The translations under genes were made by a program, and so were the position numbers. Of a DNA stretch of 64,000 bases, positions 4,855 to 22,462 are shown one piece after another (the stretch's first letter is position 1; the number at the start of each line of letters is the position of its first letter). This DNA is from a virus (Duplodnaviria > Caudoviricetes). A model generated the notes under the pieces. That model was not told the DNA's origin. It ran no database searches and saw nothing but the letters and a program-made list of their open reading frames with translations. Location of the stretch: IMG/VR virus record IMGVR_UViG_3300042508_000526; one strand, given 5' to 3'.

Positions 4855-7068
4855 TCAATTCCCCCACTTAATCGGAGACTGAAGTTGGGGCATACCCTTC
4901 GGCATCATGCCGCCCAGCTGCGACGCGCCGTAGATACCAGCTGCCGCCGTCGGAACTGCGGTGTACGGGCTCTTGGCGGCCATGGAGAGCGCTTTGCCAG
5001 CCATGTTGACGCCACTGCCGAGTCCTTGCGCCACGGCACCTGCGCCGCCGACCATACCTTGCGCCAGCGGAGCCACGCCACGGGCAATGTTCATACCAGC
5101 TTGGCCAGCGCTTTGTAATCCGCGGGCAATGTTCTGCCCTGCGCTATAGGCACGCGAAGCGCCTTCCGACACGCCGCCAACAACGCGCTGACCCAACGAC
5201 TGCGGAATATCTGCGCCGCCGCGACCAGCCATGGCGGGGTTATACGGCGCGTTCCAACCCGGCGGATCAGGCAGCGGCGGACGACCAGCCGCACCAGCAG
5301 TCGCAGCGGGACGAGGCGCAGCAGCCGCGGCCGGGCGAGCAGCACCAGCGCCAGCCTGCGCACCACCAGCCGGAGCAGCAGCCGGAGCGACACGATACTG
5401 CCGCGTCATGCCCGGATACTGCACAGTGGCCATACCGTCAGCAACGTTTTGCACCGTGCCCGAGCCGTAACGATTGTGCTGCAACGTCTTCCCAGCCTGA
5501 ATGTTCGACGGCAGCACTGTGCGGCCCTGTGTCATCGGCGCCGCTTTCTGCGCCATCTGCGCCGCGTTATCAGCAGCGCCGGCGACGGCACCCGTAGCTT
5601 TCTGCGCAACGTTATCAGCGGCACCCGCGACAGCACGACCAGCGCCTTGCGCGACACGACCGACAAGCTTGCCCAGAAACGCAGCTTTTTCGGCGCTGCT
5701 CTGTTGCGCGTTAGTCGCATCAGTCGGCACGGGGCAGCATGTTTCACGCTGCTTGTCGTCCACGAGGCGCTGACTTCCGCGGCTAGACGGCGTGTCGTTC
5801 ATCGTGGTCTTGCCCTGTCCCGCCACACCAGCTTTCTTGACTTCTTTCTTTTTCTTCTTGCCCACAGGCCGGCACGAGTCGTTGCTGTAGGGCTTCTTGC
5901 CCGGAACCGGCTCATAGCCTTCCCAGCAGCGCGCCATCTTGTAGGCAAACGCCGCGCCAGCTTTTACAGCCGATGTGCTGTTCGCCTGTAGTTGTGGCAT
6001 CAGTCGTTCGATCGCGTCTTGGTTGTTTGTTAGAAAGTCGTACATGCCGCGTGCCTGTTGTGAACTCATGTTAGGATCACGACCCATCAGCGCCGTAGTA
6101 CCGAACTCCGGGCTCAGGCCGCGCAATGTATTCATCTGCGAGCGAATATCGCCACCACCGCCACCGGCCAGCCCGTAGAGCGCATTCGCACCCTGACCAA
6201 CCAGCCGACGCGGGCCATCGCCAAACATGCCGGCTCCAGCAGCACCTAAGCCAGCCGCGCCGAGACCAAGCGCGCCGAGCGTGCCGCCCAGTGCACCTTG
6301 ACCGCGACCACCCATAAACGCGCCAGCAAGCGCCAGCGGAACACCAGCGCCAATTGCGTACCGAGCTTCAATCGGCAGGCTGTTCCACGCGCCCATCAGA
6401 CCACCACCGCCAGCCGGTTGGCCGCTTTGGGTGTCCATGCTGTGCTGCATACCCGACGCCATCTGCGTCTGCTGATTAATACCAGCCGCCGAGGGTTCGT
6501 CGCCACTGCCGATAAGCCCAGTCGCCCGGGCTCCGCCGTACAGCGTACCGCCGCCAACGGCTAAGTTCAGCGGGTTGAGCTTGTCGCCGACGGGGCTTGT
6601 ACCGAAGGCGCGGCCAGCTTCTGTTTGAATGGGGCGCACTACCTTGTCGCCGAGCTTGTTGCCGGCCGGCGCTGCTTTGCCCGGCCCGCTCATGGCCCAT
6701 CGGCCGGCGTCATCGGCTGTGTTCAGTAGATTACGCGCGGTGTTGGTCGTAAACTGCCCAACGCTACCTACACCCTCGCCGACCGATCGCGCGGCGCCTA
6801 CTACGCGGTCTTTCGCGCCCTGCACAAACTTGTTGCCGCCGACGCGCGACGCCACATCGTCCATCACGCCTTTCGCCTGCGTCGCGTACGGCGTGGCTTT
6901 CTGCACGACGTTATCAACCATGGGCGCGGCTTTTTCGACAGCTTTCGTCGCGGCGCCACGGATCGCCGGGATGGCGCGCGTCGTGGCGTAATTAACAAAC
7001 TTGCCCAGATACGCGTCTTTTTCCATTGCTTCGCGGGCAGCAGCGCCGAATGCTTGTACGTCGTTCAT
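4855..7068 (-). CDS. Gly/Ala-rich putative virion internal/ejection protein with FG...KxA leader
   Basis: MNDVQAFGAAAREAMEKDA leader; internal EKAAFLG, KMARCWEGY; GxxxG hydrophobic segments. Confidence 0.7.
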   Translation of the reverse strand: MNDVQAFGAAAREAMEKDAYLGKFVNYATTRAIPAIRGAATKAVEKAAPMVDNVVQKATPYATQAKGVMDDVASRVGGNKFVQGAKDRVVGAARSVGEGVGSVGQFTTNTARNLLNTADDAGRWAMSGPGKAAPAGNKLGDKVVRPIQTEAGRAFGTSPVGDKLNPLNLAVGGGTLYGGARATGLIGSGDEPSAAGINQQTQMASGMQHSMDTQSGQPAGGGGLMGAWNSLPIEARYAIGAGVPLALAGAFMGGRGQGALGGTLGALGLGAAGLGAAGAGMFGDGPRRLVGQGANALYGLAGGGGGDIRSQMNTLRGLSPEFGTTALMGRDPNMSSQQARGMYDFLTNNQDAIERLMPQLQANSTSAVKAGAAFAYKMARCWEGYEPVPGKKPYSNDSCRPVGKKKKKEVKKAGVAGQGKTTMNDTPSSRGSQRLVDDKQRETCCPVPTDATNAQQSSAEKAAFLGKLVGRVAQGAGRAVAGAADNVAQKATGAVAGAADNAAQMAQKAAPMTQGRTVLPSNIQAGKTLQHNRYGSGTVQNVADGMATVQYPGMTRQYRVAPAAAPAGGAQAGAGAARPAAAAAPRPAATAGAAGRPPLPDPPGWNAPYNPAMAGRGGADIPQSLGQRVVGGVSEGASRAYSAGQNIARGLQSAGQAGMNIARGVAPLAQGMVGGAGAVAQGLGSGVNMAGKALSMAAKSPYTAVPTAAAGIYGASQLGGMMPKGMPQLQSPIKWGN

Positions 7069-7228
7069 GGTTTGTCTTCCGTTTTGTTATCTAGTGGTTT
7101 GGGTTGTGGTTTTGAGTAATCGCAGCGGCCGCCTTCACAGCACGTCTCGATGATGATGTGGCAAAAGGGGCAGACAGCTTTCCCGCGTATCTCCACCGAC
7201 GGGCTTTCGCACACCGGGCAGACACTCA

Positions 7229-7861
7229 TCACCAATTGACCTCAATGGGATTACGCGTCTTGTAGCTGAAGTCCAGATCGACGGGTGAGCGGAGTTTAAC
7301 GTTAGGTAGCGGCAGCTTCGGCGCCACGGCCGCAGTTCCGCCCAGCAAACCAGCTGCTGCCAGCGTCGGCACACCGTACGATGTTTGCGACAGCGCATTA
7401 AGCCCGCGGCCAGCAGCTTGTAAACCTTCGCCGGCCATGTTGGTAGCGTGACCGACGCCACGGACAGCGCTGCCGCTGAGACGCGAGCCGTGGCCAACCA
7501 TGCCATACAGATCTCGCAGCCAACGGGGATTTGTTCCCGGCACAGAATCAATCATCTTCTTGCCGCCCGTCTGCATGCCGCGGCCCAGACCCAAGAACAA
7601 TCCGCCAAGACCTGTTGAGTTGCCAAGGCTTGTACCGGTTGTGGGCGAAAACGATGTGCGGGCTTTCGTGCCGACCATCTTGCCGATACCTTCGGTCAGG
7701 CCGCCAAAACCTTTCACGATGTGCTGCGAGCCGCGATCGAGCGTCTTCGCGCCGGAAGCAACGCCGCGCAACGCATTCATGATGCGCCCACCCACACTGG
7801 TAGGATTAATCGCGGCCTTTTCCATTTCACCGACGGCTAAGCCAAATTCATACGGATTCAT
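7229..7861 (-). CDS. Gly-rich protein with FG...KxA leader
   Basis: MNPYEFGLAVGEMEKAA; GGAG RBS upstream. Confidence 0.75.
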   Translation of the reverse strand: MNPYEFGLAVGEMEKAAINPTSVGGRIMNALRGVASGAKTLDRGSQHIVKGFGGLTEGIGKMVGTKARTSFSPTTGTSLGNSTGLGGLFLGLGRGMQTGGKKMIDSVPGTNPRWLRDLYGMVGHGSRLSGSAVRGVGHATNMAGEGLQAAGRGLNALSQTSYGVPTLAAAGLLGGTAAVAPKLPLPNVKLRSPVDLDFSYKTRNPIEVNW

Positions 7862-7871
7862 GTATCACTCC

Positions 7872-8582
7872 TCAAAAGTTTGCGATCGGTTGCGGCCGGA
7901 ACGCTGTCGGCGCCATCGGCCTGTTTAAGTTTGGCACTTGCGGGGCTGGCGTCGCCGGAAGCGCCTCTGCCGTAGCAGCAGCGGCGTTATGGGGCGCACC
8001 ACCCGAGCCGTTTAATACCATCGGGCCAGCGATCGTGGCCGTCGTGGCCGGATTGCGAATAGCAGCGTCGATTGTTGAACGGACCGGAGCAGCCTTGGTG
8101 ATTGCGCCATATTGCTGCGGCACGATCTTCTGCAGACCCTTGGTGACAGCCTGCTGGCCCTGCGTGGCTGCCCGACCGCCAGCCTGCACGAACTTCTGCG
8201 CGGCCACACCGCCTTGTCGCAACGCTTGGTTGCCGACAGCTTTGCCAGTGGCGCTCAAGCCCTTGCCGATTGTTTTGCCAACCGCGCCACCCACACCGGG
8301 CAAGAAGCTCAGCGCGGTCATGCCCGCAGCGCCAAGCGCGCTTCCAAAACGACCGTTGTACAGATGTCGCGCCATGTCGTTCACACCGGTTGCGACGCCC
8401 GTAAACGGATTCGAGTACAGCGCGATGTCTTGTGCTAAGCCGCGCTGTGTGGGGTCGAGCTGATTCAGGCCGAGCGCCGGCCCGCTGCCTAGCGCGATTT
8501 CGCCCGCAACTTGTCCGACGTCACCCCAGCTGGCGCGCTTTGTGTACGTACCGACGGCGTAACCAAACTCGTACGGCTGCAT
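7872..8582 (-). CDS. Gly/Ala-rich protein with FG...KxA leader
   Basis: likely start MQPYEFGYAVGTYTKRA; glycine-zipper segment GSALGAAGMTALSFLPGVGG. Confidence 0.75.
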   Translation of the reverse strand: MQPYEFGYAVGTYTKRASWGDVGQVAGEIALGSGPALGLNQLDPTQRGLAQDIALYSNPFTGVATGVNDMARHLYNGRFGSALGAAGMTALSFLPGVGGAVGKTIGKGLSATGKAVGNQALRQGGVAAQKFVQAGGRAATQGQQAVTKGLQKIVPQQYGAITKAAPVRSTIDAAIRNPATTATIAGPMVLNGSGGAPHNAAAATAEALPATPAPQVPNLNRPMAPTAFRPQPIANF

Positions 8583-8589
8583 AGTAAGC

Positions 8590-8967
8590 TCACTTTTTGT
8601 ACTGCTGGCATTTACGCACCAGCATCTTTGCGCGGAAGCTTCTGGCCATCTTGCGAACGTCCTTATTGTAACAATGATAACTAAAAAAGTGCCCAAACAT
8701 GAAGTGGCAGGGCGTATCGCAGAGTGTAATCAGGTTATTTTCCGTTAATTCCAGCTCCGGCGCAATGCTCACTGGAAAAATATGGTGCACGATAACATTG
8801 GCCGTGCGCCCGCAGACTTCACAGGCGGGATGCGCTTTTAAATGCGCGGCGCGAACTTTCTTCCACGCCAAAGCACGTTCGCGATACGCCAGAATATGTC
8901 GCGGGCGTAACCATAGAGGAAGCCACGTGATGCAAAACTGCCAGAATCGCGACAAGAAGTTTTGCAT
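8590..8967 (-). CDS. HNH endonuclease
   Basis: CEVCG...VHHIFP...NLITLC...CH. Confidence 0.85.
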   Translation of the reverse strand: MQNFLSRFWQFCITWLPLWLRPRHILAYRERALAWKKVRAAHLKAHPACEVCGRTANVIVHHIFPVSIAPELELTENNLITLCDTPCHFMFGHFFSYHCYNKDVRKMARSFRAKMLVRKCQQYKK

Positions 8968-9086
8968 GAGGCCACCTGCGTACTGCCGGCTGTGTGTCGC
9001 GGCAGATAGGGGCAATTAATACATCGCCGGCCGCAACATTGTTTTCTCGATAACAAAAACTCCCGCGACAGTGGTTCCGGCGTCAT
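8838..9086 (-). CDS. small Cys-rich protein (DUF5522-like)
   Basis: LLSRKQCCGRRCINCPY; the C-terminus overlaps the HNH gene. Confidence 0.45.
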   Translation of the reverse strand: MTPEPLSREFLLSRKQCCGRRCINCPYLPRHTAGSTQVASCKTSCRDSGSFASRGFLYGYARDIFWRIANVLWRGRKFAPRI

Positions 9087-9436
9087 AGCACAGTAGCGTG
9101 CTGCGTAAATAACTTCTCGTACACGACGTAGATTTCAGCATACGCTACACCCCACGCAGCGTCGTGCGCTAACTTATTAAAATCCTCGTCGGTGACCGCG
9201 GCATCGAGGCGATGGTTCCACGCCCTCGCGTGTGCCCACTCATGGAGCAGCACATCCATGGCCCGGGACTCATCCAGACTCTTGTCAATCTGAATGTGAA
9301 AGCGCTTGCCGTGTTTCCAGCAGCGACCCTCTAACTTAGAAAGCTTGACCCGGCGAACTGTCACCGGAAAAGCAGCCGGACTGAGCTTTTTCAGCGTCCG
9401 GAGGAGGGCCTGATAATATTTAAACTGAGCCGCCAT
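9083..9436 (-). CDS. zincin-type metallopeptidase (SprT-like)
   Basis: VLLHEWAHA HExxH; GGAGG RBS before MAAQFK. Confidence 0.7.
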   Translation of the reverse strand: MAAQFKYYQALLRTLKKLSPAAFPVTVRRVKLSKLEGRCWKHGKRFHIQIDKSLDESRAMDVLLHEWAHARAWNHRLDAAVTDEDFNKLAHDAAWGVAYAEIYVVYEKLFTQHATVL

Positions 9437-9513
9437 GCTCCATCCTCCTGAAGGGCGTCCTTGCCACATCAGGCCGATTATACCGGGCGGCGCAACGTTT
9501 GCCTGCACGCTTT

Positions 9514-10956
9514 TTAAGCGTTTTTCTGTAGCTGCGCTAACACGCGGGCAGCGCTCTCTTTAATTTCTTCTTCTTCCTTTTTGTCGTCTTTTTCGTCGTC
9601 TTTTTTCTCGCTCTTTTCGTCGTCCGGCTTTTTCTTCTTGCCGATGCTGGAACCAATATTACCCCCCAGATGAGCGCCTGCCCCGAGCCCCAGCGCGCCG
9701 CCACTTAACAAACCCAGTCCGGCACCCGGAGCGCCGCCGAGCGCACCACCCGTCAGCGCACCCATCAGGCCGCCACCCACGCCGCCGGCCAAACCACCGA
9801 CGCCAGAGCCCAGCACGCCGCCGAGCAGCGACGCCTTCTTGCCTTCCCACGACGGAGCGCCCATCGCAGCATCAGCCATCGAATAGCCGGCGCCACCACC
9901 CAGCGCTGCACCGCCGACGCCGCCTGTAAACAGCGTGTTCATAGCCTGTAAATGCGACGCCGGAGACGAACCGGGACCGCCGGCACGACGAACTAACTGC
10001 CCTCTACGCGCTAGTGATTTGAGGTAATCCCCGAGCTGGCGAGCTGACGGCGCAAAGAACTTTTTCGCCAGTCGCGGATTGGTCGACGCTAAAAGCAGCG
10101 TGCCGAGCGCGCCAATGGGCGCACCTACCATCATGCCGGCGCCAGTTGCTGTGCCCTTGACCGCGCCGCGGCCGACACCTTCCATGCGGTGGCCAGACGG
10201 CGCTGTCGCCGCGCCAAGACCAGCGCCAATACCGGCCGACGGCAGCATCAGCGCCGCCATCTTGTCGCCTGCAGCGGCTGCGGCTTCCTCTGGCGCAGGT
10301 GTCGCGGGCGTCTGCGGATTGCGGAACACGCCATCAGAGCCAATAAGATTGCTGCCGTGACCCTGCGCGGCGAGCATGGGATTGATAACGGCACGCTCCA
10401 ACGGATTCATCGTTTTCTGCCCCTTAGCTTTTAACATTGCGTCGCCAAGCATGCCGCCAACCAGCGCTGATTGCTTCATCTGCTGGCCTGCCATCAAGCC
10501 AGCACCAGCAACACCACCGGTCACCGCAGCCCGAGTCGGCGTACCAAACATTGTCTTGCCCATGCGACCAGCAATGTCAGAGCCCATTTGATTTACCTCT
10601 TTCACAAGCGGTTGCGCCGCATTCTGCAGCCGATTCGTGGCCCGCTGCGCTTGAATTCCGAGTCCGCGCATCTGTGTGGTCGCGGTGTTCGCGACTTGAT
10701 TGGCCGCGTTGCCGAGTTCACTGCCGACTTCATTGACGGCGGCACCTAGCGCACGCTCGCCAGAACGGATACCGGCACCAACGCCGCGCATGCTGTTGCC
10801 GAGACCAGAGACAGCATTGCCGACCATATTGTTACCCAGATTCTTCGCGGCAAAGTTAGCAATACCTTTTCCAGCGGCGTTGACTGCGCGACCCAGAAAC
10901 GCTTGCTTTGTCTGCTGACCAACTTGCATACCAAATTGCTGGGGCGTAACGGCCAT
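9514..10956 (-). CDS. Gly-rich multi-module protein with FG...KxA leader
   Basis: MAVTPQQFGMQVGQQTKQAFLG; internal KQSA, KMAA, KKAS followed by glycine zippers. Confidence 0.75.
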   Translation of the reverse strand: MAVTPQQFGMQVGQQTKQAFLGRAVNAAGKGIANFAAKNLGNNMVGNAVSGLGNSMRGVGAGIRSGERALGAAVNEVGSELGNAANQVANTATTQMRGLGIQAQRATNRLQNAAQPLVKEVNQMGSDIAGRMGKTMFGTPTRAAVTGGVAGAGLMAGQQMKQSALVGGMLGDAMLKAKGQKTMNPLERAVINPMLAAQGHGSNLIGSDGVFRNPQTPATPAPEEAAAAAGDKMAALMLPSAGIGAGLGAATAPSGHRMEGVGRGAVKGTATGAGMMVGAPIGALGTLLLASTNPRLAKKFFAPSARQLGDYLKSLARRGQLVRRAGGPGSSPASHLQAMNTLFTGGVGGAALGGGAGYSMADAAMGAPSWEGKKASLLGGVLGSGVGGLAGGVGGGLMGALTGGALGGAPGAGLGLLSGGALGLGAGAHLGGNIGSSIGKKKKPDDEKSEKKDDEKDDKKEEEEIKESAARVLAQLQKNA

Positions 10957-11050
10957 ACGGTCACCTGTGGCTTGAATAGAGTTTTGGATCTTCTTTTTTG
11001 TAACGTGCTGTGCAATGCGCTCGAACAACTTGCGGCGAGATAGTAATAAC

Positions 11051-13555
11051 TCAGCCGCCCGGGCTCCCGGTTGCGTCGACAGTAAACTCGATATCGGAAA
11101 CGTCGGCATCGCTGGGCCCCAAAATACTTCTAATTACCGGCTTGGTCGCGTTTAACACAGCCTTGTCGGGGAGCTGGTATTTTACAAGCTTGCGGCGCTT
11201 CCGTGAAAGCGGGCGTTTGGCTGTGCGCGTAATGTGCTGCTGGAGCACACGCAGCAGATCATCGCCGGCACCCGTAATTCCAGCTTGTTTGTCACCGGCC
11301 TGCTCTTTGCGGCGGCGCTTTAGATATTTTTGCAGCTCTTGCTCTTGGTATTCCTGCAGCATGGTCTTAACATCGCCGGCCTGAACTTTAGAGACCAGCT
11401 TTTCGGGGTTAATCGCCCAGTGTCTAAGCGCCCAGCCACGACGAGGTGTAGGATTGCTGACAAACGGTCCGCCATGCCGCGCTTTGAAGCTCGCCCAGCG
11501 CTTGATCTGTCGCGTGTCTTCGTCGGGGATTCTCCGCCCAGAGTTATAGTTCTGATACCACTCCAGCCAGCCCTTGGGGTCATGCTCTGTCACCCACTCT
11601 GGCTTCCATTCGCCCAGACTGGCTAACCGCGGCCCGTCTTTCTCGTACAGCGACTTGTACACACCCATGGCATGCAACTGCCCGGGCGTATAGTCAGGCT
11701 GAAAGTCAGGAAGTTCCGCGCCGAGCTTTTCTTGTTGATAGCGCGAGCCCTCTTCTTTCAGGAGCTGCCGGAAGGCTTCGTTGAGCTGCTCTTTCTCAGC
11801 CGTGAGGCGTTCCAGCACTTCGTCGCCCGTGCGTTCGCGCTTGTAGCCCATGAGCTTGCCAACAATGCTGGGCTCTTCGCTGGCGCTTAGATATCTTTTG
11901 ACGGCGACGTTTTTGAGTTCCTCTGGCAAATCCCGGTGCGAGTCAAAACGCAGGCCACGGCCTTTGGCTTGCTGGCTGCGCGATTCATGCCAGTGCGGGT
12001 CGAGCAGCTGAATCAAGCTCGTGCCGCGGGTGGACAAGCCTTCAGCGCCAGCCGGGCCAATGAGCAGCGCCCGCAGCTTGCCTTGGTTGTACGCATCGAC
12101 GGCCGCTTGGCGCGCCTTGGGTGTTACGCCGCCGTGGAAGAACGCATGCGGAACTTTGGCTTTCTCCAGCGCGGACGCATACGGCGCCAAGCCAGAGTCA
12201 ATAAAGTTCGAGTAGATAATCGCCTTCTTGCGCTTGTCTTCCGCCAGCGTCTTCTGCAAGTCTTGAAACGCCTTTTGTAACTTAGCGCTTTGCGAAAACG
12301 CCTTAGACGGATCTTTATCGGCGCGAAACGGCTGCGTCGACAGGCTCACTTGGCGCAGGCCCGTCATAAAGCTATTTAATTTGGCCAGCTCATCGCGGGA
12401 CAATGGAAACTCTTGGTCCAGCTTCCAGAGAAAGCCCGGCGGAATCTTCGTGCGGATGGCGTTCTGAATCTTCTTTTGTTCAGCACTGAGCGGGACTTTG
12501 ACCTGCTCTTCTTGAACGTTCACGCCTTCGGGTGTCTTGCTGGGCTGATAATCGACTTTGCCCTTCAGCAGCTGGCGCAGTTCTTTCTCGTTCTTAACAA
12601 TCGGCTTCACGCCGGGCTTCACCCCACGCAGCCAGCCAAATAAACCCGGCCGCACGGTCTTGTAGCCCACGTAGCGCTTCTCAAACTCTTCGGGCGACAG
12701 CTGCTTGTTGTGCAGCATGGCCAAGAGATTCGCCATGTCGCTGGGCGAGTTGGTAATCGGCGAGCCTGTTAATAACAACAGGCGCTGCGCTTTGGCCGCG
12801 GCTTCAGCAGCGCCGACAGAACTAGCGCTCCCGGGATTACGTAATCTATGCGCCTCGTCCATGATGAGCGTGCTGGGCTGCTGCTGGAACTTCTTGCCCA
12901 ACGCCAAGCCGGTGTAGCTCATGATCTCCGGATTGGAGTTGCGCGTGAACTTCTTGACTTCTTTGTCAAAGTTCCCACGCAAGCTCGCCGGCACAACCAC
13001 GCCATAGTCTTCGCCGGTCTGCTTCTTGGCTTCTTCAGCAGCCGCGAGTGACGACAGCGATTTCCCAGAACCCAGTCCGTGATACACCAGTAGTCTGGGA
13101 TCTTCGCCGGTAATGCGATCGGCAATGCGCTGCTGGTGCTCTTGCAGCTGCAGGTCGGGGATGAGTTCCGCGGTTTTGTCTGCTTCTATCTTTGCCCACG
13201 CATCGTCTTTGCTCATGCCGTTTTCTTGCAGCATCCACGCTTTATGGATTTGATCACGTTTTGCTGTTGGATAAAAGCTTAAATCTGTGTTGTTGCCAGA
13301 AGCGGTTAAAAACCCGCCCGGTCGTTGCTTGAGTTTATAGCCGTGTTTTTGCGCAAGGGTGTGCAAAAGTTTCCGAAAACGTTCTTGCTGCGCGACATCA
13401 TCCGTAAACGCAATGTAATCATAGTCGCGCCCCTGCGGCGCCGGACGGCCGTACATTTTTGCGCGGCCCCGCGAACCCATAAGCTCGGCATCGCGCATAA
13501 AACTCGCTGCCGGCTTCGGTAATGTATCGTCGAGAATGCTGTTAATTTTGCTCAT
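11051..13555 (-). CDS. modular polyprotein-like: nucleotidyltransferase-like + SNF2 helicase + conserved DPxGWxEWY domain
   Basis: GS...DYD motif; HGLGSGKS, MDEAH, TGSP, QAKGRGLR helicase motifs; modules joined by DKTA, EKLG, DKQA. Confidence 0.8.
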   Translation of the reverse strand: MSKINSILDDTLPKPAASFMRDAELMGSRGRAKMYGRPAPQGRDYDYIAFTDDVAQQERFRKLLHTLAQKHGYKLKQRPGGFLTASGNNTDLSFYPTAKRDQIHKAWMLQENGMSKDDAWAKIEADKTAELIPDLQLQEHQQRIADRITGEDPRLLVYHGLGSGKSLSSLAAAEEAKKQTGEDYGVVVPASLRGNFDKEVKKFTRNSNPEIMSYTGLALGKKFQQQPSTLIMDEAHRLRNPGSASSVGAAEAAAKAQRLLLLTGSPITNSPSDMANLLAMLHNKQLSPEEFEKRYVGYKTVRPGLFGWLRGVKPGVKPIVKNEKELRQLLKGKVDYQPSKTPEGVNVQEEQVKVPLSAEQKKIQNAIRTKIPPGFLWKLDQEFPLSRDELAKLNSFMTGLRQVSLSTQPFRADKDPSKAFSQSAKLQKAFQDLQKTLAEDKRKKAIIYSNFIDSGLAPYASALEKAKVPHAFFHGGVTPKARQAAVDAYNQGKLRALLIGPAGAEGLSTRGTSLIQLLDPHWHESRSQQAKGRGLRFDSHRDLPEELKNVAVKRYLSASEEPSIVGKLMGYKRERTGDEVLERLTAEKEQLNEAFRQLLKEEGSRYQQEKLGAELPDFQPDYTPGQLHAMGVYKSLYEKDGPRLASLGEWKPEWVTEHDPKGWLEWYQNYNSGRRIPDEDTRQIKRWASFKARHGGPFVSNPTPRRGWALRHWAINPEKLVSKVQAGDVKTMLQEYQEQELQKYLKRRRKEQAGDKQAGITGAGDDLLRVLQQHITRTAKRPLSRKRRKLVKYQLPDKAVLNATKPVIRSILGPSDADVSDIEFTVDATGSPGG

Positions 13556-13812
13556 CAGCTCACCGTAATGTTGCGAGCTGTTTTATACATTGCCCAGAGG
13601 CCCAAACCAGCTGACACCAAGCCCAGATATTTAAACGACGTGTAGACCGTGACAAAGAAGTAAATCCCCAGCCAGCATGAAAGTGCGCCGATCACCACCG
13701 CCAGCACATGCCAGCGATTGATTGCGCATAGGGCGGCGATCGGCCCGCACAGCAAGACCGCGCACACAATCAGGAATACCATGAAGGCCAAACTTTCCAT
13801 GCCACACCTCAA
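13555..13812 (-). CDS. small membrane protein (three helices)
   Basis: almost entirely hydrophobic 85 aa. Confidence 0.6.
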   Translation of the reverse strand: MRCGMESLAFMVFLIVCAVLLCGPIAALCAINRWHVLAVVIGALSCWLGIYFFVTVYTSFKYLGLVSAGLGLWAMYKTARNITVS

Positions 13813-14144
13813 AACGCGCTACGGCTGACACGTTTGGTCACAGCCGGCATCGTCGGCTTGGGTGCGGCAGGTGCGGCGGGCCTTGTCACCGGCGCGGGCG
13901 CAGCAGGCTTCGCGGCCACTGGCGGAACGCGCGTTCCGGCACCAACGCTCGTCACTTGTCCGCGGGACAGCGTGCCCTGCAGCGGCTGCCCGGCAGGAAT
14001 ACCAGCTTGACGGCCGGCTGCCTGTAGCTGCTGCGCTTTGCCCTCCAGTGCCGCGTCTTCGCGCTCCATGCGCGCCCACTCCGCGTCAAAGTCGCCCATG
14101 GCTAATTTAATACGTTGCCCAAATTCAAACGGCGTCATAGACAT
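13809..14144 (-). CDS. small protein with FG...KxA leader
   Basis: MSMTPFEFGQRIKLA; Pro/Ala-rich tail. Confidence 0.7.
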   Translation of the reverse strand: MSMTPFEFGQRIKLAMGDFDAEWARMEREDAALEGKAQQLQAAGRQAGIPAGQPLQGTLSRGQVTSVGAGTRVPPVAAKPAAPAPVTRPAAPAAPKPTMPAVTKRVSRSAF

Positions 14145-14154
14145 AACTTTCTGT

Positions 14155-15012
14155 TTATTTGTCAGCCGGAAACACCAGATTCAGATCCGATGCGGTGGTG
14201 CCCTTGCCGGCAATGCGCAATTCGTGCGCTGTGATCTGTGATTCTATCCAATCCGCGTACAAACTGATACGGGTGTGCGCTGCTTCGTCGCCATACGAGC
14301 CGTTGGGTTGCTTATCCGCCGCCATGAGAAATGAATTAATTCCCGCCAATTTGTTGCCAATAAACATTCCGCCACCAGAATCGCCCGGCGTAATCAAAAA
14401 TTCGAGCGGATAACGATTTTTTACGTCCGCCCGGCAAATCAACACGCCCCGCTCCGTGCCTTCGACCGCATTGTGCCCGCCCCGACGTTTGTTATCGGCT
14501 GTTTGGGCGCCGGTGTGAAATGTGCCCGCAAAGCCGTAGCCCGCAATGGTCACAGCTTTGCCCAGCTCATCGGTGTCGCGATACAGCTCCGGATAAAACT
14601 CTGCTTCGAAATCTTTGTCCGAATAGCACAGCGCCAGATCCCCGTGCCCAAAACTCTCATCTTTGAAGTCGTGGTGAATGACAAAATACGGCACCGCATG
14701 TTTCTTGTCGTCGGCCAGCATGATCTCCGGCTCGCGCGTGTCATGGAGCACATGCGCCGCCGTAAGCGCCCAGTTCGGCCGGATTAAGACAGCCGAGCCG
14801 TACTGATGCAGCGTAATCTCGACGCCGCTTTTCTTATCTTTAATCGTCGTCAGCGCACGAATGCGCACGACATTGGGAAACTGCTTGCCGAATTCGACGT
14901 ATTTCTCGTCTGGCGTGTTCGGATCACGAGTGCCGGCCAAAGCTACAGACGAGCCGGCTAGGATTAGAACTATGTAGCGAAGCAGGTGGGCAAAGGTTTC
15001 TCGCACGTTCAT
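14155..15012 (-). CDS. secreted trypsin-like serine protease (S1)
   Basis: signal-peptide-like N-terminus; LTAAHV, GDLAL, PGDSGGG triad. Confidence 0.9.
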   Translation of the reverse strand: MNVRETFAHLLRYIVLILAGSSVALAGTRDPNTPDEKYVEFGKQFPNVVRIRALTTIKDKKSGVEITLHQYGSAVLIRPNWALTAAHVLHDTREPEIMLADDKKHAVPYFVIHHDFKDESFGHGDLALCYSDKDFEAEFYPELYRDTDELGKAVTIAGYGFAGTFHTGAQTADNKRRGGHNAVEGTERGVLICRADVKNRYPLEFLITPGDSGGGMFIGNKLAGINSFLMAADKQPNGSYGDEAAHTRISLYADWIESQITAHELRIAGKGTTASDLNLVFPADK

Positions 15013-15053
15013 GGCGCGCCCCCGATCGTATGTTAAATAGTTAGCATCTCATT

Positions 15054-17039: not shown

Positions 17040-17112
17040 GCGCGGCCTGCTTGTAAATATCTAAAGCGCCCATTGTAGAGAAGTTTATTCTACCCCAAAA
17101 GCGCCAATAGCT

Positions 17113-17161
17113 AAAAAAAAGCGCCGTGCTTGGGGTTACCCCCGAGCCGTGCGCCTTTTTT
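17113..17161. terminator. intrinsic terminator, possibly bidirectional
   Basis: GC-rich imperfect hairpin flanked by an A8 tract on the left and a T tract on the right. Confidence 0.65.
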
Positions 17162-17468
17162 ACTCAAGATCGACGAGCGCTGCCAGATTTTTAATCAGCG
17201 CGCGCAACACTTCGATCATCTTCTCGATCCGGGGCAGTTCGTCAGCGGGCACGAACTTTCGCAGATCTTCCACGGCCTGCAGCTGATTCTCGGTGAACGC
17301 GATTAACTCCTTGTTGGACACGGAGTTAAAGTTCTCACCGAAGATCTGCATATGAATGCTGTCCAGCCGGTCTACGATCGAGTCATACTCGGCCGTGGAC
17401 GCAGCGGGAGCAGCCGCAGGCGTGGGAGCGAAGAAATCACTGTCGAACTCGAAATCGAAGCTGACCAT
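17160..17468 (-). CDS. hypothetical acidic protein
   Basis: GGAGG RBS before MVSFDF; GC3-rich codons. Confidence 0.7.
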   Translation of the reverse strand: MVSFDFEFDSDFFAPTPAAAPAASTAEYDSIVDRLDSIHMQIFGENFNSVSNKELIAFTENQLQAVEDLRKFVPADELPRIEKMIEVLRALIKNLAALVDLE

Positions 17469-17505
17469 GTGGTCCTCCATGAATGCCGTCTCGAAAGGAA
17501 TAGCT

Positions 17506-17538
17506 AAAAAAAGGCGTGCACCCTTTCGGATGCACGCC
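17506..17538 (-). terminator. intrinsic terminator
   Basis: GGCGTGCA/TGCACGCC stem followed by T7 on the minus strand. Confidence 0.8.
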
Positions 17539-17593
17539 CCAAAACCTCACAACAAGTGATGTTTTTACGCCGCCAGAAATGGCGGCGTCAGGA

Positions 17594-18343
17594 TCACGAG
17601 ACGGCGACCGCGTTGACCACGGTGACCGGCTTCGACTGCTGGGTCTCGGCCTCGACCTGCGCTTCCGCCTCCGTCAGGCAGGTGGCGAGCAGCTCACGCC
17701 GCACGCCAGCCTGAAAGAACGCGTACGCCACTTCGGCCACGCAGCCAGCGGTCACGGCGCCGAAGAACACGGCGGTGATCTGCTGGACGAGCGTGCTGCC
17801 GCCGAGGCTGGCCGCGACACCGGCCATCGCACCACCGGAGAGCACACCGGCCACGACCGAGATACCGATCGTAGCGGCGGCCACCATGAGGTTGATGGCG
17901 ACGTTGTTCACGGCCACCCAGTCCACGTTCATGGAGCTGATCAGCTCCTTCACGTAGGACAGGGCCTCGCGGACCTTGCCGACCGCAGCCGTCGCCATCT
18001 GGCCGAGCCAGTTGACGACCGCCCGGACCGCATCAGCCGCGCTGGCGTAGATGCGGCCGAGGAACGTCCAGACACCGGACGCGATCGCCTTGAGGGCGCT
18101 GAACGCCTTCTCGGTGATCGTGTAGATGCCCTCGCCGATCCCACCCAGCACCGCCGCCGTGCCGTCATAGACGCGCACGAGCGGGCTGTTCGAGTGGACC
18201 GTCTCCTCGACGATCTGCTCGATGTCCTCCCGGGTGAGGGGCTTGGACTTGGTGCGCGTGCGAGTGGCCGAGGCCTTCTTCGTGGCCTTGACCCGACGGG
18301 CACCGATCTTCTCACGCATCGACATCTTGACCTTCGTTGTCAT
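17594..18343 (-). CDS. hypothetical membrane protein with basic N-terminus
   Basis: Lys/Arg-rich start, hydrophobic Gly/Ala helices, AGGAG RBS, strongly GC3-biased codons. Confidence 0.75.
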   Translation of the reverse strand: MTTKVKMSMREKIGARRVKATKKASATRTRTKSKPLTREDIEQIVEETVHSNSPLVRVYDGTAAVLGGIGEGIYTITEKAFSALKAIASGVWTFLGRIYASAADAVRAVVNWLGQMATAAVGKVREALSYVKELISSMNVDWVAVNNVAINLMVAAATIGISVVAGVLSGGAMAGVAASLGGSTLVQQITAVFFGAVTAGCVAEVAYAFFQAGVRRELLATCLTEAEAQVEAETQQSKPVTVVNAVAVS

Positions 18344-18435
18344 CTGAGCAACTCCTAGAACGTGGAAAGAAACCTAGTTACGCAGAAACCCATGTAACTC
18401 ATATGGGGACACGAATAACACATTCGCATCACTAG

Positions 18436-18463
18436 ATATACCCGGCTTTTGGCTTTTATTTAG
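18436..18463 (-). promoter_or_regulatory. phage promoter CTAAAT-N17-TATAT
   Basis: one of six exact-spacing copies. Confidence 0.75.
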
Positions 18464-18466
18464 ATA

Positions 18467-19549
18467 TCAGCCGTCATTCCGGGCTTTCACCACCATCTGC
18501 CCCTTCGCAGGCCACAATACCATCTGTTGCATTGTGTCCTCGTCAGTTACATCTTTCAGTAACTGCAGAGCTGTTACTGGACGCTGCGCGATCTCTTCCT
18601 TGCGCTTGTCATTGAGCTTGTCGCGCAGGACGAGCTTCAGCGCGTCATACCGCGGATACGTGTTCCATTCCCAGCCGTCCTCGTTGACCGGGTTGTACTC
18701 AGCGTACTTCCCAGACACGTAATGGTTGGTTTGCGCCATCGCATGTCGCTTGGTGCGAATGGTCGACGTATCCCCGACATGAGTTACAACAGTGTGTTCT
18801 TTGGACTTGGTACCGACCACGTGCGCAAAAAACGGCACCATGGTTTCGTAGTTACGCAAGCCGAGAACTAACCCGTTGTAACTTGGCAGCTGATCACACA
18901 CGGCTCTGACCCGCTGTAAGGCAGGCCATTTGAAGAGCAGTGTGGGAGCTGCCAGCCAACCAGACCAAGTGTTAAGCTTGTTAACAATTGGCGCCTGATT
19001 GACCGTGACTGCCCAGTTGTCAGCCATTGCAGATATCACGCCCACCATGCCAGCAACGCCCACAGATGTGTAGGACTTGTTGCCACGGTGAAAGCGCAAG
19101 ATCTTGGTGTGCCGGCCTGTACTGCGCGGCACCACCCAGTCCATGTTCCGGACCAGCAATGGCGTGTTATCAACCTCGAAGCTGATACTGGAGCACCCAC
19201 AACCGTACATCTCGGCAAGAGATGTAAAGTCGTAGATGAGGTTCCCCAGCATCAACTTACCCACAGGGACATCAGCGTGCTGGGCAATGCACGCCAGTTC
19301 CTGTGTGTACTCTTCACCAAATTGATTGACAACTTGGCGAAGTAACCAGCCGGTGCCGGAAGCCAAAGCATGCAGCGCGGTACAGAGCGTGCTGCCCAGA
19401 TATGGCTCCAGTTCTTCTGAGACGGCGGTTTCCACGTCGTCCAGAAGCTCAGCGATGGCTCCGGCTTCACGCTGCGCGAATGTCGCCCAGCGTGTGTCGG
19501 CCGGCTCGTCGAGGTCGATGTCATGAACCCGCCGAGGACTTGTAAACAT
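18467..19549 (-). CDS. acid ceramidase/NAAA-like Ntn hydrolase
   Basis: IDLDEPADTRW, G-CSSI nucleophile, VRNMDW, QTNHY. Confidence 0.8.
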   Translation of the reverse strand: MFTSPRRVHDIDLDEPADTRWATFAQREAGAIAELLDDVETAVSEELEPYLGSTLCTALHALASGTGWLLRQVVNQFGEEYTQELACIAQHADVPVGKLMLGNLIYDFTSLAEMYGCGCSSISFEVDNTPLLVRNMDWVVPRSTGRHTKILRFHRGNKSYTSVGVAGMVGVISAMADNWAVTVNQAPIVNKLNTWSGWLAAPTLLFKWPALQRVRAVCDQLPSYNGLVLGLRNYETMVPFFAHVVGTKSKEHTVVTHVGDTSTIRTKRHAMAQTNHYVSGKYAEYNPVNEDGWEWNTYPRYDALKLVLRDKLNDKRKEEIAQRPVTALQLLKDVTDEDTMQQMVLWPAKGQMVVKARNDG

Positions 19550-19554
19550 GATGT

Positions 19555-20109
19555 TTAATTCCTCGATGGTGACAAAGAACGGCAGGCATCCAGCCCATCG
19601 AGCAGGGCCTGCAGCTTGGTGTCCCGAACCTTGGCCTGTGCATCTCGCACTCTGTCAGCCGGGGTTTCGGGCAGCACGGGGCCGACGAGGCCACCATGCT
19701 TGTTGAGCACCAGCACCACCACCTCCACGGGCACCCAGCCGAAGACGTCGCCAGTGCCGTCTTCAGTGCCCATGTCGGAGTACGGCGCCAGCAGCGGCTC
19801 AGGCTGCGTGGGGAAACCGATCTCCACTGCGTTCCACGGGCCGGTGTCCCGGCGCGGGGAGCAGTAGTGACTCTGGCTGGCCTGCACCGACATGCTGAAG
19901 CCGTCTCGGCAGAGCATGGGCCGGCGCTGGTACAACCCGGACTCGGGCTTCCAGTACCGGACGTTGTTCATGTCGTTGAGGTACCCGTTCACCAGCGCCA
20001 GCGCGTTTTCGAGCTGCGCGATCTTGGCGAAGTGATACCCCATGACGACCAACATCGCCACGACAGCCGCGACCAGACCGGTGACCACGATGTTAACATC
20101 TGCGAACAT
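19555..20109 (-). CDS. conserved phage hypothetical protein with N-terminal membrane anchor
   Basis: CRDGFSMSVQASQSHYCSPR...VEIGFP...GWVPVEVV block. Confidence 0.7.
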   Translation of the reverse strand: MFADVNIVVTGLVAAVVAMLVVMGYHFAKIAQLENALALVNGYLNDMNNVRYWKPESGLYQRRPMLCRDGFSMSVQASQSHYCSPRRDTGPWNAVEIGFPTQPEPLLAPYSDMGTEDGTGDVFGWVPVEVVVLVLNKHGGLVGPVLPETPADRVRDAQAKVRDTKLQALLDGLDACRSLSPSRN

Positions 20110-20205
20110 ACAGACTCTCCTTCAAGCGCTGCGAGAATGCAGCAGAAGAGCCGCCAAAACCCGGGCAGCCCTACGGGGATGCTGATTACACGTCAGCATC
20201 ACCGT

Positions 20206-20233
20206 ATATGCCCGCTTTTGGTCTTTTATTTAG
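20206..20233 (-). promoter_or_regulatory. phage promoter CTAAAT-N17-CATAT
   Basis: motif copy followed by an 8-bp hairpin. Confidence 0.75.
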
Positions 20234-20236
20234 CTA

Positions 20237-22462
20237 TCAGGAGGCGGCCGCAACTCCAGCCCCTGCGCCACCCACAGCAGCCGCTCCGCCAGCCCCATAG
20301 GCCAAGCGTTTCCCGGCCGGCACCATCGGCGACGCGACCGTCATGCCATACTGGAGCATGGGCTTGTACACATACTTGCCAACCGCGGGCATAACGCCGG
20401 ATTCATGCGGCTTGTACACCATGCTGTGATCCGCGGCCGACAGCCCTTGCAGCCGGCGCGGTGAAAGCTGGAACTCCACGGGTGTCTGGCCCAGCGTGCC
20501 CTTGATGTTCCAGCCGTGATAGCCCGGGCGCTGGAGCATTTGCGATTTACTTATGTTTACGCCGGCCTCTGTCAGCTGCTTCGTTAAGCTATCAATGACA
20601 GGTTGGTCATAACCGCCCTGCGATGTGAGCCGAAAGCCCAGCAGGTCATTGGTTATTGTGTCGCCGTGGCCAGCAATACTTTGCGGTGTCTTTACCCGGC
20701 CGGCATACACTTGGAACCCTTTGGGCTGAAATGACTTCAAGAACTCATTGCCGGCCTGTAACGCCTGCTCACGTTCTTTCTGGAAAACGCCTTGGGGCAC
20801 ATTGTCGCCCAGCGTTGTCATGGGGCCACGAAATGCGCTTCGAGCTGCGCCCACAGCCTTCGAGATACCCTTGAGACCAATGCGCCGGCCGAACTCCATG
20901 AGATTCGCCGACTTTTCTTTTTCGTCGGGCCAGCCGGGTTGCAACTGGTATTCGTACACGGGCTCGCCATGCAGCAGTTGTTTCTTGGCGAGGGCTGGAA
21001 CTTTGCCGACCATAGCGCCGGACGGATCGGGTTGCAGGCGATAGCGTTCCTGCAGCCATTGTTTTTTGTATTCCGGATCTGTTTTGGCCAGCCGCATGAA
21101 CCCCTGTGTCTGCACAAAGTTTTCGATATCTTTGGGCGCAAGGGAAACATTATGTAATCTCTCGGGCGGCACGCTCAGGGGCGTAATCTTGTAGTGTGTG
21201 CCTTCTTCTAACTGGCGCTTGTGTGTCCGCTCCGCCAGATGTTTACGCAGCCGGTCGAGAACTTCCTGCTGTTTCTTCTTGTTCCCGGGAATGATGGCGC
21301 GCGCTTCCCCTGTCCGGGCATTGTTGTAGGCCAGTCCGGGGTGCTGCAGCTCATCAAGAATCTGGTGTAAAGACTTGCGCAGGTTCACGCCCTGCACATT
21401 GCCCTCAAAGCTGTACACGGCAGACTGCTTGCCGAACTCATAGGCGCTGGAGCATTTGCAGTTCCACTTGCGCAGAGATTTGTTAATGCGCGAGTCAGGA
21501 TCTTTGGCCGTGCTGGCGCCAGTGTTAACTCGACGCATGCCGCACATACGGGAGCAGAAAGAATTCTGGCGCTTGGCCCGGTCGCCCTTGGGGTTACTTT
21601 CGGTCACAGGGGCTTTTAAGTTCCCGCCGTGCTCCCGTTCGTAGCTCTTGCGCCCCTTCTCGTTGAGGCCGCCAGCTTCGTTTTTGCCCTCGCTGCGCTG
21701 CCATGCCGGAGTTGACGATATCTTTTCGCTGCTATTGGCGGTCCCAAAAGACGCATTGCCGTTAATATCGCCGCTGGACGAGATAGCCCCATAAGAATTA
21801 ATGGGATTGGCGTTGGGAGAGCTACCGCCGCCTACTGGAGGAAGCTGCCCGGATTGCCCTTGGGCGCTCGCTTGGCCGCCAGCAGGGGCCGCCGGGGCTG
21901 CAGGAGCCTGTGCCATACCCATTGGGGGCGGCGTCGCGGCAGCTGGCATGGCGTATCGTTTAATTCCACTGTTCATCGGCTGTAACTGGGCGTTTCGGGC
22001 CTCCTGTTCAGCCTTTTCATTCTCGATCGCCTGCATAATCGGCTGGGACAAGACGACCGAAAGCTTTTTAAACAAGCTATTTTCCGCTTTTTCCGGCATT
22101 TTTTCGCAGATATGGTTTTCCCCCACGGTTTCTGCCGGCTGGACGGGTTTTTCACCTGCCGCCATGGGTTTATCACTCTGGGGGAGCGTAACTTTAACCG
22201 TTGTAGACTCGGCTTTCTTGCAAATTTGGCTGTAAATACTTACCGCTAATGACTTTGCAGAAAAATCCCAGTTGTTTGGCACCATGGCTGTTTTCTTATT
22301 TGTATCGTCGTCGCTGGACTCTGGCTTTTTGTCTTCTTGAGCCTTGTCAGAGACGTACAGAGGGAGCTTTTTAGGCTTCGGATACTCATGCGCCCAGCGT
22401 TTGGCAATATCTGGGTGCGCAGCCCAGAGAAACCGTCGCTGTTTTTCTGAGCGAAAGGGCAT
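20237..22462 (-). CDS. modular polyprotein-like: MPFxS motif + DUF6321-like + acylphosphatase-like + RelA/SpoT synthetase-like
   Basis: AWQRSEGKNEAGGLN; FEGNVQGVNLR; GRVKTPQSI, DLLGFR, GYHG, VEFQL, DHSMVYKP. Confidence 0.8.
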   Translation of the reverse strand: MPFRSEKQRRFLWAAHPDIAKRWAHEYPKPKKLPLYVSDKAQEDKKPESSDDDTNKKTAMVPNNWDFSAKSLAVSIYSQICKKAESTTVKVTLPQSDKPMAAGEKPVQPAETVGENHICEKMPEKAENSLFKKLSVVLSQPIMQAIENEKAEQEARNAQLQPMNSGIKRYAMPAAATPPPMGMAQAPAAPAAPAGGQASAQGQSGQLPPVGGGSSPNANPINSYGAISSSGDINGNASFGTANSSEKISSTPAWQRSEGKNEAGGLNEKGRKSYEREHGGNLKAPVTESNPKGDRAKRQNSFCSRMCGMRRVNTGASTAKDPDSRINKSLRKWNCKCSSAYEFGKQSAVYSFEGNVQGVNLRKSLHQILDELQHPGLAYNNARTGEARAIIPGNKKKQQEVLDRLRKHLAERTHKRQLEEGTHYKITPLSVPPERLHNVSLAPKDIENFVQTQGFMRLAKTDPEYKKQWLQERYRLQPDPSGAMVGKVPALAKKQLLHGEPVYEYQLQPGWPDEKEKSANLMEFGRRIGLKGISKAVGAARSAFRGPMTTLGDNVPQGVFQKEREQALQAGNEFLKSFQPKGFQVYAGRVKTPQSIAGHGDTITNDLLGFRLTSQGGYDQPVIDSLTKQLTEAGVNISKSQMLQRPGYHGWNIKGTLGQTPVEFQLSPRRLQGLSAADHSMVYKPHESGVMPAVGKYVYKPMLQYGMTVASPMVPAGKRLAYGAGGAAAVGGAGAGVAAAS

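Follow-up and report, generated by a model that had tools for sequence, protein, structure and literature searches.

Our analysis of a 64,000-nucleotide (nt) stretch of viral DNA (IMG/VR record IMGVR_UViG_3300042508_000526; hereafter the window) identified, in a gene cluster at positions 4855-22462, a two-part peptide code in which [P/A]-[Y/F]-[E/Q]-F-G is followed, after 0-9 residues, by [E]-K-x-[A/S/G]. The code stands as a leader at the start of otherwise unrelated proteins and recurs inside others, and its K-x-A part is also found at conserved positions in the candidate prohead protease, the scaffold-like proteins and the capsid protein of the same phage. By analogy with better-known head-assembly systems, we consider it probable that K-x-A is the cut site of the head protease and Y-E-F-G a cargo-targeting tag, such that the tagged proteins would be loaded into the head, cut and injected. 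The window corresponds to bases 112270-176269 of one 203,206-bp contig, which has nearly all of its genes on the minus strand and carries multisubunit RNA polymerase (RNAP) beta/beta' genes; its source is an uncultured 203-kb lake jumbo phage with its own multisubunit RNAP, and about 20 related contigs of 190-205 kb are present in IMG/VR.

All peptides quoted in a first-pass annotation of the window, which had proposed that five otherwise unrelated genes begin with the same leader, are present on the minus strand. Four of these starts (7068, 7861, 8582 and 14144) are N-terminal as proposed, but the copy at 10956 is most likely internal, at residue 52 of an open reading frame (ORF) of 531 amino acids (aa), because the 51-aa N-terminal extension is kept in all relatives with a bias towards third codon positions (the frame is open for ~50 codons upstream in all of them, with 14-20 third-position changes vs 3-11 at positions 1 and 2). 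A second start could also occur at the internal ATG, 4 nt upstream of which stands AGGTGA. The recurrence of the leader inside the gene at 20237-22462 was borne out (AYEFGKQSA, residues 340-348, and an EKSA-type copy, EKSANLMEFGRRIGLKG, residues 516-532), as was the unrelatedness of the leader-bearing proteins, which show no significant pairwise similarity once the leaders are removed (best E 0.008). The leaders of the window follow the pattern M-x-[P/A]-[Y/F]-[E/Q]-F-G...[E]-K-x-A, and 34 distinct leaders from the relatives gave the consensus M-x-[P/A]-[Y/F]-[E/Q]-F-G-x-x-[V/I]-G-x(3-4)-[E]-K-x-[A/S].

A regular expression for the N-terminal leader matched 4 of 236 ORFs (three of the cluster, plus an unrelated one located beyond the window), with 0.06 matches expected from shuffled sequences; it catches neither the 737-aa protein p737, which has AFG in place of EFG, nor the internal copy at 10956. 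A hidden Markov model (HMM) of the leader, trained on the relatives alone with this genome excluded and run on a six-frame translation of the whole genome, recovered the copies at 7861, 8582 and 10947 with E values of 1e-8 to 1e-7 and the copy at 14138 with an E value of 0.003, the next match having an E value of 1.3; the degenerate p737 leader (MNDVQAFG) was not detected in this search. When 2.9 million IMG/VR contigs were scanned for P-Y-E-F-G-x-x-V-G, Met-start copies followed by K-x-A were seen only in this ~200-kb clade. Synonymous codons vary between the leader copies (TAT/TAC, GAA/GAG, TTT/TTC, GGC/GGT/GGG) and the DNA upstream of them is unrelated, which indicates selection on the peptide. 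We conclude that the leader is a real peptide signal, chance and DNA-level conservation being excluded as its source. It does not resemble the leaders of ribosomally synthesised and post-translationally modified peptides or of double-glycine bacteriocins: the bodies are 111-741 aa long, there is no GG at the leader ends, and Pfam-type scans of the cluster turned up no C39 peptidase-transporter or modification enzymes. We also considered, and dropped, motifs of the Prp/L27 (QFF↓A), prepilin (G↓F) and signal-peptidase (A-x-A) types, which do not fit the conserved positions.

The K-x-A part of the code also marks boundaries between protein modules. Across the ~20 related contigs, modules have been exchanged from one protein to another, and the junctions retain K-x-[A/S/G]. 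The first-pass annotation had placed K-x-A at domain boundaries, and comparison with the relatives upheld this for the sites that it named (DKTA, EKLG and DKQA in an SNF2-family helicase polyprotein, KMAA and KKAS in the 531-aa protein, EKAA in p737), although a BLAST end-point test considered below was borderline. The SNF2 core (E/D-L-x-P-x-x-x-L-Q-x-H-Q-Q-R-I) begins directly after K-x-A in 14 of 14 distinct relatives, in which the sequence upstream is either an unrelated module of 35-340 residues or a short leader, and on the C-terminal side 12 of 13 relatives have K-x-[A/G/S] after the core, with differing modules beyond it, two of which start A-F-G...K-x-A. Similarly, K-x-[A/S] precedes the p737 module RCWxGYEPVPGKxPYSxDSCRP in 11 of 11 relatives of that protein, often with [L/R]-E-F-G just ahead, and [E]K-x-[AS] also stands before their C-terminal Gly-rich module. 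In relatives of the 531-aa protein, K-x-[A/S] is always found before modules B and C, whether a leader or another module lies upstream, and in some of them the leader is joined directly to module B. The DUF6321 module of p741 (the product of 20237-22462) ends at WNC, which is where stand-alone DUF6321 proteins from one pelagiphage and one cyanophage stop and where eight PHROG profiles end; after WNCKCSS, seven of nine relatives have A[YMA][EQT]FG plus K-x-A or a close variant, and one more has K-x-A without the FG element. A logo built from 79 sites gave the consensus E-K-Q-A, with E at K-1 in 49% of sites, Q at K+1 in 35% and A/S/G at K+2 in 81/14/5% (together 100% by construction); past K+2 nothing is conserved save a tendency towards Leu at K+4. 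Genome-wide, K-x-A is not enriched (272 observed vs 294 expected), yet its placement is far from random.

The head protease that the first-pass annotation had postulated was found, as a strong candidate, in a head module at genome positions 81883-87202, 25-30 kb outside the window. It is a 483-aa protein (genome 85751-87202), 64-85% identical among the relatives, and it was recognised by its fold model, an invariant His and Ser, and its gene neighbourhood. The gene order (protease, acidic 449-aa scaffold-like protein, two Ala-rich proteins of 140 and 195 aa, and a 313-aa major capsid protein (MCP), which Atlas grouped with major capsid protein clusters at 0.98) is the same in two distant relatives described below, the IMG/VR contig G001 and Salmonella phage Arash. 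An initial AlphaFold2 model of the full 483 aa, made from a shallow alignment, had a mean predicted local distance difference test (pLDDT) score of 59 and was not used for the fold search, for which we used a model of residues 1-250 from a 44-sequence alignment (pLDDT 84). Herpesvirus assemblins and T4 gp21 filled the top 30 rows of the VIA-align search (Z 9.6-5.1, 103-131 residues aligned, root-mean-square deviation (rmsd) 2.7-4.0), the best three being two assemblins (Z 9.6 and 9.3) and gp21 (Z 8.9) with 115-128 residues aligned and an rmsd of 2.7-3.6; Foldseek matches were weak (E 0.03-0.3) but one-sided. As modelled, then, the protease domain has the assemblin/gp21 fold, with a helical scaffold-like C-terminal half. 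Across 44 diverse sequences the putative catalytic residues, H103 and S164, never vary. Rhodococcus phage E3 and Gordonia phage Stormageddon have homologues that carry the annotation of prohead or capsid maturation protease, and the family comprises 2,621 clusters (50% identity) at E <0.001.

The protease protein has no Pfam hit, including to Peptidase_S77 and S80, and S77, S78 and S80 clusters are among its Atlas feature neighbours (0.90-0.91); searches of the protease and the MCP against the PDB, both by single sequence and by profile, gave nothing meaningful. A complex prediction of the protease domain with residues 1-40 of the leader-bearing protein p210 scored 0.00 without controls and counts neither for nor against binding. 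Many protease homologues (P0121, P0129, P0131 and P0134) carry inteins (Hint plus LAGLIDADG), inserted right after H103, at about residue 72, or right after S164; insertion at active-site motifs is typical of inteins.

The protease itself is rich in conserved K-x-A. In an alignment of 18 close relatives and one 31%-identical relative, five of the eight invariant Lys residues have an invariant Ala at +2 (K39, K246, K352, K404 and K455; 0.2 expected, Poisson p 3e-6), and at spacings of 1-4 every other residue pair occurs at most twice. K246-A-A248 lies exactly at the end of the modelled protease domain and thus corresponds in position to the release (R) site of assemblin. The pattern EK.A exceeds its frequency in composition shuffles in the protease (5 vs 0.28), in a 128-aa head protein (3 vs 0.12) and in p737 (3 vs 0.10), and the K-x-A sites of the scaffold-like proteins are nearly all conserved, at 60-80% overall identity. 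The N-terminal region of the capsid protein, which the first-pass annotation had named as a place to look, also has such a site: in a three-way alignment with the MCPs of G001 and Arash (23-32% identity), K30 and A32 of K30-Q-A32 are among only 37 invariant columns, and they follow a non-conserved N-terminal stretch.

When the comparison was extended to more distant phages, the two parts of the code behaved differently. The G001 contig (208,264 bp) has a protease 31% identical and a helicase 30% identical to those of the lake phage, and five of its genes, including that of the SNF2 helicase, open with M-[R/S]-[P/A]-[Y/F/C]-D-[L/Q]-F and then have K-x-A or K-x-G; one of the proteins has a second, internal copy. 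This pattern has five matches on the coding strand, none on the other strand and none in a reversed control. The tag is therefore altered relative to the lake clade (M-R-P-Y-D-L-F, M-S-A-F-D-x-F) and K-x-A is unchanged. This would be expected of a tag that co-evolves with a receptor and of a K-x-A that is tied to a conserved active site. Among the cultured relatives of the head module that we found, the closest is Arash (OQ632216), an "orphan" myovirus of 181 kb. Its gene order is likewise RNAP, helicase, protease homologue, scaffold-like proteins and MCP, and the protease homologue, gp222, shares 35-38% identity with the protease protein. Arash also shares the enrichment of K-x-A, its [EDTQ]K.A sites being concentrated in gp220, gp222, gp223 and gp242, along with the conserved K-x-A of the MCP. 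Its helicase gp217 (L112:3489-4907) aligns to residues 132-603 of the window SNF2 protein with 33% identity, which is exactly the core between the K-x-A junctions; unlike the window protein, it is a bare core without flanking modules. Liquid chromatography coupled to mass spectrometry (LC-MS) of Arash virions yielded 3,516 spectra for RNAP beta, 1,210 for beta' and 1,148 spectra (38 peptides) for gp217, with gp222 and gp223 also listed (PMC10585845).

Taken together, the fold-matched protease, the K-x-A sites in head proteins and at shuffled junctions, and the abundance of a helicase homologue in Arash virions (PMC10585845) favour the earlier proposal of a Lys-x-Ala head protease that releases injected proteins, and the in-silico checks suggested with that proposal all turned out favourable. 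That the proteins are packaged, cut and ejected (injected), and at which bond the cut falls, is what we infer from this evidence; a targeting role of Y-E-F-G is suggested by analogy only. In the mechanism that we propose, K-x-[A/S/G] would be cut by the assemblin-fold prohead protease (85751-87202) after the small residue (P3 Lys, P1 Ala), a placement chosen because the assemblin sites YLQA↓T and VQA↓S are analogous. The protease would trim both itself and the scaffold-like proteins and take ~32 residues off the N-terminus of the capsid protein. Y-E-F-G would be a clade-specific tag that draws cargo into the assembling prohead, much like the T4 capsid-targeting sequence (CTS), and the cut would part the tag from the mature protein, after which the freed modules would remain in the head and enter the host with the DNA. 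The cargo would include the glycine-zipper proteins, the SNF2 helicase, DUF6321, the acylphosphatase-like module and the RelA/SpoT-like module. More tentatively, and here we lean slightly against rather than for, K-x-A may be the family-wide specificity of a very large and so far undescribed branch of assemblin-fold prohead proteases (the 2,621 clusters, with Arash and large Mycobacterium, Gordonia and Rhodococcus phage genomes), to which lake jumbo phages would have added a position-independent tag (Y-E-F-G or Y-D-L-F) that lets them recombine arbitrary modules, membrane-active proteins, the SNF2 helicase and a RelA/SpoT-like enzyme among them, into head-loaded, cut and injected polyproteins; the SNF2 helicase would then travel with the virion RNAP. 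Leader-plus-cleavage systems are already known from T4 and from phiKZ/SPN3US; new here are the motif, the putative Lys/Ala specificity, a tag that is used internally and independently of position in shuffled, polyprotein-like genes, and how large the protease family is.

The CTS of T4 has two parts, one for targeting and, after it, one for processing (PMC9026906), and is likewise a short N-terminal leader (10-19 aa) on unrelated, fast-evolving proteins (IPI, IPII, IPIII and Alt), from which it is removed by gp21. Head and scaffold proteins of T4 contain the protease motif too, and the cargo leaves the head together with the DNA on ejection (PMC9026906); the reuse of the motif in head proteins is matched in the lake phage. 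On the other hand, T4 cuts after Glu in L/I-x-E, which is not conserved at the leader ends of the relatives, whereas the motif here is [E]-K-x-[A/S/G]; the T4 tag is MKTYQEFIAE, whereas the Y-E-F-G tag is also found internally and near C-termini, where it bounds modules of polyprotein-like genes of up to 834 aa; and the likeness of gp21 to the phage protease is at the level of fold only (Z 8.9), with no Pfam S77 match. The closest structural match of the protease domain is instead herpesvirus assemblin (pUL26; Z 9.6-9.3), which cuts after Ala at its R and M sites, and both proteins have an N-terminal protease and a C-terminal scaffold or scaffold-like half. In pseudorabies virus, assemblin and scaffold form one fusion protein, and cleavage follows the Ala of YLQA↓T and VQA↓S (PMC4498786); these sites share with our E-K-Q-A consensus a small residue at the putative P1 position and a frequent Q at P2. 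They differ in having Val or Leu at P3 in place of Lys, and the present system has a bacterial host and a code spread to many cargo proteins with an extra tag. The first-pass analogy to the Glu-specific proteases of T4 and phiKZ is therefore better replaced, as far as the enzyme is concerned, by assemblin, which cuts after Ala in x-Q-A, while the capsid-targeting principle of T4 is retained.

Processing in phiKZ (gp175) and SPN3US (gp245) removes N-terminal propeptides of 20-254 aa, and the C-terminal propeptide of the protease, at a tripeptide motif (PMC10052503). These are also jumbo phages with a virion RNAP and many packaged ejection proteins, but their motif is A/S/G-x-E, with Glu at P1, no shared short leader or internal tags have been described for them, and their relation to the lake phage is limited to the protease fold. 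A further comparison concerns the module at the C-terminus of p741. In polymorphic toxins of the MuF type, the phage minor head protein F is fused to C-terminal effector domains that include RelA_SpoT. An enzyme-like effector module is thus carried there by a head-associated protein, whereas the p741 module is set off by a leader and K-x-A; a Pfam scan of p741 found no Phage_Mu_F domain (PF04233).

Several observations weigh against the proposed cargo system. In the BLAST end-point test, which was crude but unbiased, 7 of 29 module boundaries lay within 6 aa of K-x-[AGS] vs 3.5 expected (p ~0.05); BLAST ends are fuzzy in low-complexity proteins, and we preferred the motif-anchored junction comparisons given above. 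Some strongly supported boundaries, such as p236 residue 185 and p737 residue 404, have no K-x-A nearby, and several cluster proteins (p661, an Ntn-hydrolase-like protein and a trypsin-like protease) have no leader. In three of the DUF6321 relatives the protein stops 4-6 residues past the motif, where a cut would remove almost nothing, and the tag may act there without cleavage. Because the K-x-A motif is short, Ala-rich charged helices (EAAAK-like) can inflate its frequency beyond what the shuffles correct for, which weakens the counts for the scaffold-like proteins. A scan of 123 kb of Arash for a Y-E-F-G-type or shared aromatic N-terminal leader found none that was convincing, and the Arash virion list of 116 proteins probably includes contaminants. 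To these must be added the presence in the cluster of two other putative proteases, both kept in all relatives: a trypsin-like S1 serine protease with an N-terminal hydrophobic anchor (14155..15012, minus strand; Pfam Trypsin E 2.4e-12) and a small SprT-like HExxH protein between the leader-bearing genes (9083..9508, minus strand; 72-85% identical in the relatives), whose Pfam match (E 7e-4, 19.8 bits) is below the cut-off of 25.6.

These enzymes suggest another reader for the code: one of them might cut the tagged proteins in the infected cell or its envelope, the products being membrane or periplasmic factors for lysis, superinfection exclusion or envelope remodelling in place of capsid cargo. 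Many of the putative substrates are glycine-zipper, membrane-like proteins and a conserved Lys would fit a trypsin-type enzyme, yet we think this improbable. The prohead protease, the scaffold-like proteins and the capsid N-terminus all have invariant K-x-A and would not be expected to meet an anchored or envelope protease, and Arash retains the pattern around its protease and MCP genes; a small residue conserved at +2 is more in keeping with a P1 Ala of the assemblin type than with cleavage after Lys, and the S1 specificity position of the trypsin-like protein, counted from its GDSGG motif, appears to be Leu and not Asp. Somewhat less unlikely, though still a minority view, is that nothing is cut and that Y-E-F-G...K-x-A is retained, marking the starts of modules as a short linear motif for interaction or linkage, such as one on which scaffold, portal or chaperone docks. 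The motif does occur at N-terminal, internal and near-C-terminal positions (those 4-6 residues from the stop in three relatives), and several invariant K-x-A sites in the C-terminal half of the protease are within predicted helices; docking would, however, leave unexplained the K-x-A without Y-E-F-G at many junctions of unrelated modules and in the N-terminal region of the MCP, as well as K246-A248 at the end of the protease domain, placed like the release site of assemblin. That the likeness reflects conserved DNA (a ribosome-binding or regulatory RNA element, or recombination joints) or compositional chance is barely credible: the copies are all at or near gene starts in one operon-like block, as a DNA-level explanation would have it, but their synonymous codons vary, the upstream DNA is unrelated and internal and C-terminal copies exist, and against chance stand the four N-terminal matches for 0.06 in shuffles and a peptide kept across ~20 relatives.

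If head loading and cleavage at K-x-A are indeed what the code directs, the set of injected proteins could be predicted from sequence alone for a widespread group of lake jumbo phages, which is represented in public data by hundreds of close homologues of the protease. A third specificity class (P3 Lys, P1 Ala) would join the few prohead-protease codes known so far, and phage proteases would gain a closer link to assemblin. Capsid cargo would also be organised as shuffled polyproteins with internal tags, an arrangement that to our knowledge has no described counterpart in T4 or phiKZ-like phages. Such a tag, being short and portable and having a defined cut site, could serve to load foreign proteins into capsids. 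As the K-x-A pattern recurs in Arash, for which virion LC-MS data exist, the central claim could be tested quickly there.

The cluster is part of a fast-evolving block of modular proteins (glycine-zipper proteins, which are probably membrane-active, the SNF2 helicase, the DUF6321 module and the RelA/SpoT-like module) located between the tail-fibre genes and the polymerase and head genes. Among relatives, the leader-bearing proteins are 28-62% identical, vs 70-86% for the helicase core, protease and MCP, and this quicker evolution fits injected, host-facing proteins. Window DNA was found in lake water metagenomes from more than 20 studies by a sequencing-run search, with no RNA dataset among the listed holders. 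A megablast of the region against 50,697 deposited phage records gave no match and so no close relative, tblastn of p210 against the same records gave none either, and close relatives alone were among the matches listed by a homologous-protein search; Pfam and PHROG scans of the leader-bearing proteins and most head proteins found no families.

All of the cluster genes described here are on the minus strand. The 737-aa modular Gly-zipper protein p737 (4855..7068) has its degenerate leader at residues 1-19 (nt 7012-7068) and junction sites at AAFAYKMA↓RCW (nt 5932-5955), EVKKAG (nt 5827-5844) and SSAEKAA↓FLGK (nt 5680-5700). In p210 (7229..7861), the leader MNPYEFGLAVGEMEKAA (residues 1-17, nt 7811-7861; HMM E 1.3e-8) is followed by a Gly-rich body and a hydrophobic C-terminal segment; it is better conserved than the body in six orthologues, and there is an in-frame stop two codons upstream. 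The leader of p236 (7872..8582), MQPYEFGYAVGTYTKRA (residues 1-17, nt 8532-8582; HMM E 1.5e-8), precedes a hypervariable, indel-rich segment, with a conservation of 0.74 for the leader vs 0.48 for the next 43 residues. The short-spacing leader of p111 (13809..14144), MSMTPFEFGQRIKLA (residues 1-15, nt 14100-14144; HMM E 0.003), is joined to a Pro/Ala-rich body. The 531-aa ORF (9514..11109) consists of the conserved 51-aa N-segment, the leader MAVTPQQFGMQVGQQTKQA (residues 52-70, nt 10900-10956) and three modules, with GDKMAA (nt 10252-10269) and EGKKAS (nt 9829-9846) as separators. Its N-segment reads LLSRRKLFExIxxHV...QATGDR, and 59 nt of the ORF are shared with the 3' end of the SNF2 gene.

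The SNF2-family helicase polyprotein (11051..13555; Pfam SNF2-rel_dom and Helicase_C) is made up of an N-module, ADKTA (nt 13169-13183), the helicase core, QEKLG (nt 11720-11734), a KRW...FKARHGGPF module, GDKQA (nt 11282-11296) and a C-tail. In this phage and its relatives, the SNF2 proteins have a second short motif, [S/P]-S-I-L-[D/G]-D, at their very N- and C-terminal ends (MSKINSILDD..., ...KSILDDDDAAD; residues 6-10 and 810-813 of the window protein), and it was also seen near the N-terminus of a 273-aa protein (genome 61803-62624); it may be another sorting signal. The trypsin-like protease has, just past its anchor, the sequence D-E-K-Y-V-E-F-G-K-Q-F (window 14880-14913), which is tag-like without A/S/G at K+2 and is kept in distant relatives.

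The order of modules in p741 (20237..22462) is an N-module, DUF6321 (residues 259-333), AYEFGKQSA (nt 21419-21445), an acylphosphatase-like module, EKSA↓NLMEFGRRIGLKG (nt 20867-20917), the RelA/SpoT-like module and a Gly-zipper tail. The Pfam scan found DUF6321 and a weak Acylphosphatase match (E 6e-4), with no other family, and a literature search on DUF6321 found no paper. The C-module past the second internal leader (residues ~557-716, window 20237-20800) resembles RelA/SpoT small alarmone synthetases in predicted structure (template-modelling score 0.56-0.62), and its Atlas structural neighbours include RelA_SpoT clusters and a Phage_Mu_F cluster. Two Cys-containing modules, the RCWxGYEPVPGKxPYSxDSCRP module of p737 (residues 380-402, window 5830-5930) and MPFRSEKQRRFLWA of p741 (residues 1-28, window 22380-22462), also occur in marine cyanophage proteins, for example in S-B64, and the relative L019 has both of them fused with DUF6321 in one protein. 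Finally, two small proteins encoded beside the RNAP genes (genome 101888-102244 and 95469-96197) start with MDVTEKEA↓FRLGF and MFTVNPELIALAKARFEKAA↓FVPG, and these starts are possible short propeptides ending in E-K-x-A.

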